From the IMG/VR virus record IMGVR_UViG_2617270988_000009: 33,205 nucleotides of DNA; one strand, given 5' to 3'. This document shows positions 14,868 through 15,547 of the stretch, one piece after another (positions within the stretch are counted from its first letter, which is position 1; every line of letters begins with the position of its first letter). Made by a program: the position numbers and the translations under genes. The notes below the pieces were generated by a model. That model saw only the letters and a program-made list of their open reading frames with translations, was not told the origin of the DNA and ran no database searches. This DNA is from a virus. Taxonomy: Duplodnaviria > Heunggongvirae > Uroviricota > Caudoviricetes.

Positions 14868-15547
14868 TTATGACATTGCTGCAAGGCTCAGCGCGTCTTC
14901 CAGCGCCGCAAACGGATCCACCTCCGGCTTATCCTCATCCTCGCCCCAGCAGAGCATGGCGTCCTTCAGTGCAACATTCATCCCCTGTGCCCCGAAAACC
15001 GCTTTCACGATCTGTGCATTACGGATATCCCCGCGCTCATCACCCAGCGGGGATACCCTGTCGAACTCCATCCACATCATCGCCTCGCTCGCACTCAGGC
15101 TGTGCCGCAGTTCGGATAAGGTGCGCCCCAGACGGAGCGCAAGTCGCATCAGAAAGCGAATTTCCGGGCGGGCTACTTTTTTCTGGCCGACTCTGCATCA
15201 GCGATCAGTTCCAGTGCCTGACGCAGCAACCGGGCATGTACCGGACCATAGACGGCCAGCACCTGCTCACGGTCGTCCGGAGTGAACACCCGTTGCAGGT
15301 CAGTATCACACAGGACATCGCAGAACAGCGTCACATCCGCTTCCAGGTTACGGCGGGTTTTCGCCACCACCGACAGGGTATCGTCATCCTCTCCATCACC
15401 ATTGAGCACTTCCTGCCACAGATACCAGGCCTCTGCCGAAGGCTCCCGCAGCACCACGCTGACATTTCTCCATTCCGGCACCTTCACCGTTTTATGACGG
15501 AACCCCGACAGTCTGGCCAGCGCCAGTGTTTTCAGATCTTTTGCCAT
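14868..15547 (-). CDS. tail assembly chaperone G-T fusion produced by programmed -1 ribosomal frameshift
   Basis: The -1 frame is open from the slippery site through 14868 (…KKVARPEIRFLMRLALRLGRTL...), recreating the conserved lambdoid G/G-T arrangement. Confidence 0.55.
15173..15547 (-). CDS. G: tail assembly chaperone G (lambda gpG-like), 124 aa
   Basis: Position between the major tail and tape measure genes; ends ...ESARKK-stop with an A-AAA-AAG slippery heptamer at its 3' end. Confidence 0.65.
   Translation of the reverse strand: MAKDLKTLALARLSGFRHKTVKVPEWRNVSVVLREPSAEAWYLWQEVLNGDGEDDDTLSVVAKTRRNLEADVTLFCDVLCDTDLQRVFTPDDREQVLAVYGPVHARLLRQALELIADAESARKK
15176..15182 (-). promoter_or_regulatory. 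-1 frameshift slippery heptamer A-AAA-AAG (G to G-T)
   Basis: Heptamer of X-XXY-YYZ type in the G zero frame, immediately before the G stop codon. Confidence 0.55.

Follow-up and report, generated by a model that had tools for sequence, protein, structure and literature searches.

A -1 frameshift of the HK97-type tail-assembly chaperone family at the G/T junction of a lambdoid Escherichia coli prophage

Two reading frames that lie between the major tail and tape-measure genes of a lambdoid prophage, the second out of phase with the first by -1, can be read either as two separately initiated proteins or as one protein and its occasional, frameshifted extension. Here, we ask which of the two readings holds for the minus strand of positions 14868 to 15547 of a 33,205-nucleotide stretch of viral DNA (IMG/VR record IMGVR_UViG_2617270988_000009; the window, hereafter). 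The evidence described below leaves us almost certain that the locus is a tail-assembly-chaperone -1 programmed frameshift in the HK97-like tail module of a lambdoid (Stx-phage/BP-4795-like) E. coli prophage. The feature itself is ordinary and has been described before; that is, it is an experimentally measured member of the HK97-type G/G-T frameshift family.

Gene G (15173..15547, minus strand, stop included), a tail assembly chaperone of 124 amino acids, starts at ATG 15547 and stops at a TAG at 15175..15173, its final codons being GCC AGA AAA AAG TAG. Reading the open frames of the minus strand therefore confirmed the statement of the first-pass annotation, made from the letters of the window, that G ends in AGA-AAA-AAG-TAG with an in-phase A_AAA_AAG. 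The heptamer AAAAAAG (15182..15176, minus strand; zero-frame codons AAA and AAG) sits in X_XXY_YYZ phase with respect to G and thus suits tandem -1 slippage, and the zero-frame TAG follows directly 3' of it. The -1 frame opens just seven codons ahead of the G stop and remains open until a TAA at 14870..14868, so that the endpoint proposed earlier was right and the proposed length (~95 codons) was too low, there being 101 sense codons beyond the G stop and 102 added residues. The predicted slip product, ...DAESARKK|VARPEIRFLMRLALRLGRT...LAAMS, would thus be 226 amino acids long (124 + 102 residues), with base 15176 used twice. Its T segment (VARPEIRFLM...LAAMS plus the TAA stop; 14868..15176, minus strand) would be translated only after the slip. 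An ATG at 15147..15149 (minus strand), 24 nt past the G stop, corresponds to Met134 of the fusion; it is also the start of the 93-amino-acid ORF (15149..14868) to which annotation pipelines give the name T. Complementarity to the anti-Shine-Dalgarno sequence is weak upstream of this ATG, with a duplex of -3.5 kcal/mol vs. -5.5 kcal/mol for G and -7.6 kcal/mol for the start of the tape-measure gene. The frame of T thus begins, in the -1 phase, before G has ended and is without a good ribosome-binding site, which is the arrangement that defines a G/G-T pair.

The protein families and the gene neighbourhood are those of a tail-assembly chaperone. Gene G matched Pfam PF06222 (Phage_TAC_1) over its full length (E = 2.3e-61; 205.6 bits vs. 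a cut-off of 25; profile positions 1-124 of 124) and shared 63% identity with HK97 gp13, while the -1 extension matched PF06223 (Phage_tail_T; E = 5.9e-19; 68.7 bits vs. a cut-off of 25.9; profile positions 1-70 of 73). The 224-position PHROGs profile phrog_14766 spanned the whole fusion (residues 1-223), a full-length match that implies earlier deposition of fused products from this family; NCBIfam returned no matches for either G or T. Upstream lies a major tail tube protein gene with a C-terminal Ig-like domain (15553..16269; Pfam Phage_tail_2/TTP and Ig domains, phrog_158) and downstream a gene for a tail length tape-measure protein of 1080 amino acids (11574..14816; Pfam TMP_3, Phage_HK97_TLTM and Tape_meas_lam_C). 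The order major tail, G, T and tape measure, all on the minus strand, is the one by which G/G-T pairs are recognized. A terminator-like hairpin followed by a U-run, AAAACCUGC-UGUG-GCAGGUUUU, stands between the T stop and the start of the tape-measure gene (14833..14858, minus strand; our scan caught its plus-strand form only and the minus-strand form was read straight from the sequence). A second terminator-like hairpin with a U-run is found upstream of the major tail gene (16292..16306, minus strand). In HK97 and HK446, rho-independent terminators have been annotated immediately ahead of the tape-measure gene, and the two hairpins of the window correspond to the HK97/HK446 terminators at comparable places; they may represent attenuators that tune the dosage of the tail genes.

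The most direct evidence comes from the literature. A cluster of "phage tail assembly chaperone" frameshifts, similar to HK97, had been predicted by Antonov et al. 2013 (NAR 41:6514, PMC3711429), who assayed two of its members in E. coli with a GST-insert-MBP reporter, detecting the fusion with anti-GST. Insert 15618692 (Supplementary Table S2 of that study, cluster Phage_TAC) gave 7% +/-0.79 frameshifting and a G_GGA_AAG relative gave 6%. Our sequence comparison showed the 75-nt insert 15618692 to be identical to positions 15202..15128 of the window (minus strand). Hence, a frameshifted fusion is made from the identical cassette in E. coli, with the qualification that this is a literature result obtained in a heterologous reporter, not in the native prophage. 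Existing sequence records treat the junction in several ways: RefSeq/GenBank entries of near-identical prophages carry G and T as two CDS with no join, the HK97 record describes gp14 as "translated due to a -1 frameshift", the HK446 record has a joined CDS, and the Bcep176 record gives gp69/gp69' as equivalents of lambda G/T.

To what extent the junction is kept among relatives was assessed on loci gathered by tblastn of a phage collection and by searching GTDB genomes and IMG/VR with 11 aligned fusion proteins; a script then located, at each locus, where G stops and in which frame T lies. In total, 175 sequences were scanned (174 loci plus the window), of which 165 were resolved and collapsed to 99 distinct contexts. 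These originated from Escherichia, Klebsiella, Enterobacter, Serratia, Yersinia, Proteus, Morganella, Providencia, Xenorhabdus and Pantoea, as well as Halomonas/Salinicola, Bordetella, Achromobacter, Burkholderia and Pseudomonas. Of 5426 complete E. coli genomes, 1246 contained the region itself, and it shares 99.6-99.7% identity with Stx-converting phages, BP-4795 and EDL933 prophages. T lay in the -1 frame of G in every one of the distinct contexts (99/99), and a single uninterrupted G-T ORF was not seen among the 165 loci.

A canonical heptamer was found in 75 of the 99 contexts, and the remainder carried an in-phase A_AAG or an HK97-type site. A_AAA_AAG is the commonest shift site of the family (61/99), being followed directly by the stop, as in the window, in 44 contexts and lying 24-30 nt ahead of the stop in the other 17. 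Less frequent were G_GGA_AAG (8 contexts), A_AAA_AAC (5), G_GGA_AAC (1), an in-phase xxA_AAG plus stop only (17, with the stop abutting in all of them) and the HK97-type site (CGG_GAA_AAG...CCC_CCG; 7). The "different slippery sequence" of the first-pass annotation is thus indeed different from the G_GGA_AAG of lambda but is by no means unusual. The site of HK97 and HK446 reads CGG_GAA_AAG_UCU_CAA_CCC_CCG_GCG_UAA, in which the exact position of the shift is ambiguous (GAA_AAG vs. CCC_CCG), and prophages of Klebsiella, Pantoea and Erwinia carry only GCA_AAG_UAA or GAA_AAG_UAA.

The interval that separates the slip site from the first ATG is particularly informative because it codes for nothing in the zero frame and precedes the annotated start of T. 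For stop-abutting sites this spacer was always 27 or 30 nt long, i.e., a multiple of three, and its column entropy was 0.68, 0.89 and 1.47 bits at the first, second and third codon positions of the -1 frame, respectively. Three of the residues that it encodes in that frame are kept throughout or nearly so (Pro in 44/45, Phe in 45/45 and Leu in 45/45), and Pro128 is invariant in the alignment of fusion proteins, as is the start Met of T. A coding-like pattern in such a position is direct evidence for -1 frame translation by ribosomes that come from G. Conservation of the -1 frame, the lack of which in comparative alignments had been put forward as grounds for giving up the idea of a frameshift, was therefore borne out, as was the broader assignment of the locus to the G/G-T type of -1 frameshift, which draws on gene order, protein families, heptamer phase, the conserved junction site and the published reporter on identical sequence.

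Alternatively, T could be translated on its own from ATG 15149, either by independent initiation or by reinitiation after termination, with the heptamer being incidental. RefSeq indeed starts its "phage tail assembly protein T" at this ATG, the start Met is invariant in relatives, and in the phiE125/Bordetella subgroup the G stop overlaps the ATG as TGATG, which is a classical coupling arrangement. We nonetheless hold this explanation to be very unlikely, given the weak anti-Shine-Dalgarno complementarity upstream of the ATG noted above, the coding-like character of the nine codons that precede it (with their kept Pro, Phe and Leu, and spacers that are multiples of three), and the retention of a shifty junction site in essentially all relatives. 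Further, the identical cassette gave a GST-MBP fusion, a product obtainable by frameshifting only. Independent or re-initiated T may be an additional, minor product.

A second alternative keeps the G-T protein and changes its origin; that is, RNA polymerase would add one A on the A run (transcriptional slippage) and the identical protein would result. One inserted A does yield exactly ...RKKVARP..., some relatives (phi467 type) have eight consecutive A's, and the published reporter cannot tell the two mechanisms apart. Nevertheless, the run in the window is one of six A's (AGAAAAAAG), as opposed to the ~8-9 or more on which efficient bacterial transcriptional slippage depends (PMC5009743; Antonov et al., PMC3711429), and relatives with G_GGA_AAG or GCA_AAG have no homopolymer at this junction even though the G_GGA_AAG cassette shifts at the 6% given above. 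Accordingly, we view transcriptional slippage as extremely improbable, and a ribosomal slip on A_AAA_AAG as the preferred origin of the fusion.

Finally, the two frames could have arisen by chance, or a mutation could have split a formerly continuous gene that is now decaying in a defective prophage. The tail defect of this prophage and the occurrence of a comparably long open frame in a small share of shuffled sequences might speak for this notion, yet it was rejected and its probability is practically nil, since the comparative data refute it: the two-frame arrangement recurs in 1246 E. coli genomes and in distant genera and is present in functional phages such as HK97, HK446, BP-4795 and Stx phages. 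Chance statistics by themselves make a modest case. An open frame of 102 codons arises in ~1-2% of composition-matched random or shuffled sequences, AAAAAAG occurs 15 times in the whole window, and 9 of the 91 long stop-to-stop ORFs of the window have an in-phase X_XXY_YYZ heptamer within 40 nt before the stop. The statistics being weak, our verdict does not rest on them, and the observation is convincing only because of the homology, the comparative data and the published assay.

What might stimulate the ribosomal frameshift on A_AAA_AAG is a separate matter. The downstream stimulatory structure that had been suggested was not found: the stretches of 50 and 80 nt that follow the heptamer folded no better than shuffled sequences (z = -0.42 and -1.65, respectively), and z ranged from -0.23 to +1.22 for the 50 nt downstream in 22 relatives of <90% identity. 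A Shine-Dalgarno-like element upstream of the heptamer was likewise absent (anti-Shine-Dalgarno duplex of -2.4 kcal/mol). The T coding region contains a stable 8-bp hairpin, UGCGCUCC-GUCU-GGGGCGCA (15141..15122, minus strand; ~-12 kcal/mol), which begins 35 nt downstream of the heptamer and 6 nt past the conserved ATG. It encodes the invariant ALRxGR motif, and its unusual codons (Leu CUC/CUU and Gly GGG) fit the pairing. We rejected this hairpin as a stimulator because it shows no covariation (0.056 vs. 0.055 for shuffles, with 184 of 500 shuffles reaching the observed score, based on 75 relatives), is lost in many relatives (75.6% of cells pair, and the hairpin is gone wherever Arg is replaced by Lys), and is too far from a ribosome at the slip site. 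The hairpin is probably a by-product of the ALRxGR peptide motif; that it damps internal initiation at the ATG is offered here as an idea and nothing else.

Slow decoding in the A site favours slippage in the P site. For this reason, and because a stop codon is often conserved next to the site, the abutting TAG emerges as the only candidate stimulator, acting possibly via slow termination. Taking this one step further, the core of the signal might be A_AAG plus the direct stop rather than the heptamer, i.e., a P-site slip of a single tRNA-Lys during a termination pause. Pointing in this direction are the 44 of 61 A_AAA_AAG contexts that abut the stop, the 17 relatives with only xxA_AAG and a stop, and the lack of RNA structure; the relatives without a canonical in-phase heptamer, in particular, suggest that the minimal conserved core is A_AAG (plus stop). 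We put this forward as a tentative proposal that we would not yet prefer over the heptamer. Its corollary, that the upstream A_AA or G_GG half would be an optional enhancer and the stop the sole stimulator, is possible to a similarly limited degree. If true, an A_AAG/stop core would represent a small refinement of the known shiftiness of A_AAG next to stop codons, not a new kind of recoding.

Among known systems, the closest is HK97 gp13/gp14, with which the window shares the pair of Phage_TAC_1 and Phage_tail_T between the major tail and tape-measure genes. It differs from HK97 and HK446 in that these have no canonical in-phase heptamer and a stop five codons further on, after CCC_CCG, as opposed to the A_AAA_AAG plus stop of the window, and also in that a moron gene (gp15) is found between T and the tape-measure gene in both phages. 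The likeness to lambda G/G-T is of another kind. The gene position is the same, the -1 shift takes place near the end of G, and lambda T matches PF06223 as well (2.1e-14; 54.1 bits), with a relationship between the two T proteins that is visible only via the Pfam profile, as BLASTP between them returned no similarity. The efficiency is also at the per-cent level in both cases (~4%, or 30:1, in lambda vs. 7% here). In contrast, lambda G belongs to Phage_TAC_2 (PF06894) rather than Phage_TAC_1, and the G of the window showed no Phage_TAC_2 match in Pfam and a BLASTP E-value of 6.5 against lambda G; its likeness to lambda G is functional and positional and does not amount to membership in the same sequence family. 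Therefore, the earlier proposal that the locus reproduces lambda G/G-T stands as far as position and the Pfam family of T are concerned, and does not extend to G, which is no sequence relative of lambda gpG. The heptamers differ too, lambda having the other P-site half in G_GGA_AAG, and the stop abuts the heptamer in the window.

The lambda system provides much of the background for interpreting the HK97-type pair. Frameshifting on G_GGA_AAG was described by Levin et al. 1993 and Xu et al. 2004, 2013 and 2014, as cited in PMC5009743, and the same review (Atkins et al. 2016) gives a G:G-T ratio of 30:1 and describes the frameshift as widely conserved. In lambda, the tape-measure protein is bound by G and G-T and the major tail protein by T, and both G and G-T are needed for tail assembly while being absent from virions (PMC5009743). 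Maynard et al. 2012 (PMC3296357) reported that the lambda ratio depends on the thiolation of tRNA-Lys. At the level of the slippery site itself, the closest likeness is to E. coli dnaX, which has the identical A_AAA_AAG, with the same single tRNA-Lys (mnm5s2UUU) shifting its pairing from AAG to AAA. However, dnaX has a Shine-Dalgarno-like stimulator upstream and a stem-loop downstream and shifts at ~50%, whereas the window has neither of these elements and shifts at 7%; that is, the window does not carry a dnaX-type cassette, taken here to consist of a Shine-Dalgarno-like element ~10 nt upstream and a stem-loop 5-9 nt downstream. In addition, the shifted product is the shorter one in dnaX.

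Based on these likenesses, the following model can be proposed for the HK97-type pair of the window. Most ribosomes (~93%) would end at the TAG and release the 124-amino-acid G, and ~7%, if the reporter figure holds, would slip back by one base on A_AAA_AAG; the single tRNA-Lys of E. coli forms a better pair with AAA than with AAG. Having slipped, the ribosome would read GUA (Val) across the stop and go on for 102 codons to yield the 226-amino-acid G-T. The frequency of the slip would thereby fix the ratio of G to G-T, at roughly 13:1, and with it the stoichiometry of the chaperones on the tape-measure protein. By analogy to lambda, the tape-measure protein would be coated by many G and few G-T molecules, whose T domain would bring in the major tail protein; homology of the T domain and gene position suggest these protein-protein contacts. 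The role assigned to the stop codon and a function of the pair in this particular prophage are to be read in the same conditional sense.

Whether the signal would be of any use to its present carrier is a relevant question because the tail module of the prophage is truncated, which renders the element tail-defective. The module ends after gene M (11240..11581), and the distal tail genes L, K, I, J and lom as well as the tail fibre genes are missing. At a junction near 11168/11169, potB-espK and the first ~27 nt of espO run straight into the end of gene M; positions 9300..11168 match potB-espK-espO' of other E. coli strains, and in strain SLK172 the same site carries the full set and continues with tail fibre, lom and J. 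None of the 5426 complete E. coli genomes held the junction of the window in one place. The frameshift signal itself is intact, yet it may serve no function in this element unless other lambdoid prophages rescue it through recombination or complementation.

Several other features of the window were noted along the way. Next to the truncation, an ORF of 453 amino acids (9719..11080, plus strand) with no Pfam match shows 99.9% DNA identity to a region annotated as the type III effector EspK, and the EspK locus adjoins potB at the prophage end. Between the portal gene and the head-tail connector genes, an ORF of 461 amino acids (17803..19188, minus strand) contains a near-perfect tandem repeat (18269..19023) of 162 bp in 4.7 copies with 98% matches, which encodes 54-amino-acid repeats. 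No Pfam match with its own matched stretch reaches the curated cut-off for this ORF, and its product may be a head decoration or scaffold-like protein. An ORF of 641 amino acids (20761..22686, minus strand) combines Peptidase_S78 (residues 48-152) with Phage_capsid (residues 382-631), i.e., it is a protease-capsid fusion gene. The right end of the window carries tRNA-Arg(UCU) (32964..33040) and tRNA-Arg(UCG) (33054..33130), both on the minus strand, a third tRNA that is cut by the window end (33141..33205, minus strand), and a match to the STnc100 sRNA (32698..32887, minus strand; 132 bits), and we take this region (32698..33205) to resemble the tRNA cluster of Stx-type lambdoid phages upstream of the late region. 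At the left end, a tyrosine integrase (3249..4499) and an adjacent ORF of 388 amino acids without a Pfam match (1472..4499 together, minus strand) lie by roxA/pepT/potAB, which indicates a second integrated element there, separate from the prophage that carries G and T.

In conclusion, G/G-T frameshifting is conserved in long-tailed phages to the point of being textbook knowledge, and its presence in the window has accordingly little value as a discovery. Its practical consequence is a correction of the annotation: a 226-amino-acid join(15547..15176, 15176..14868) on the minus strand should replace the separate G and 93-amino-acid "protein T" that RefSeq/PGAP and the majority of Stx-phage records continue to give. 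For the family as a whole, the census shows how the shift site varies within a single family of tail-assembly chaperones, from A_AAA_AAG through G_GGA_AAG and A_AAA_AAC to a degenerate A_AAG followed by a stop.
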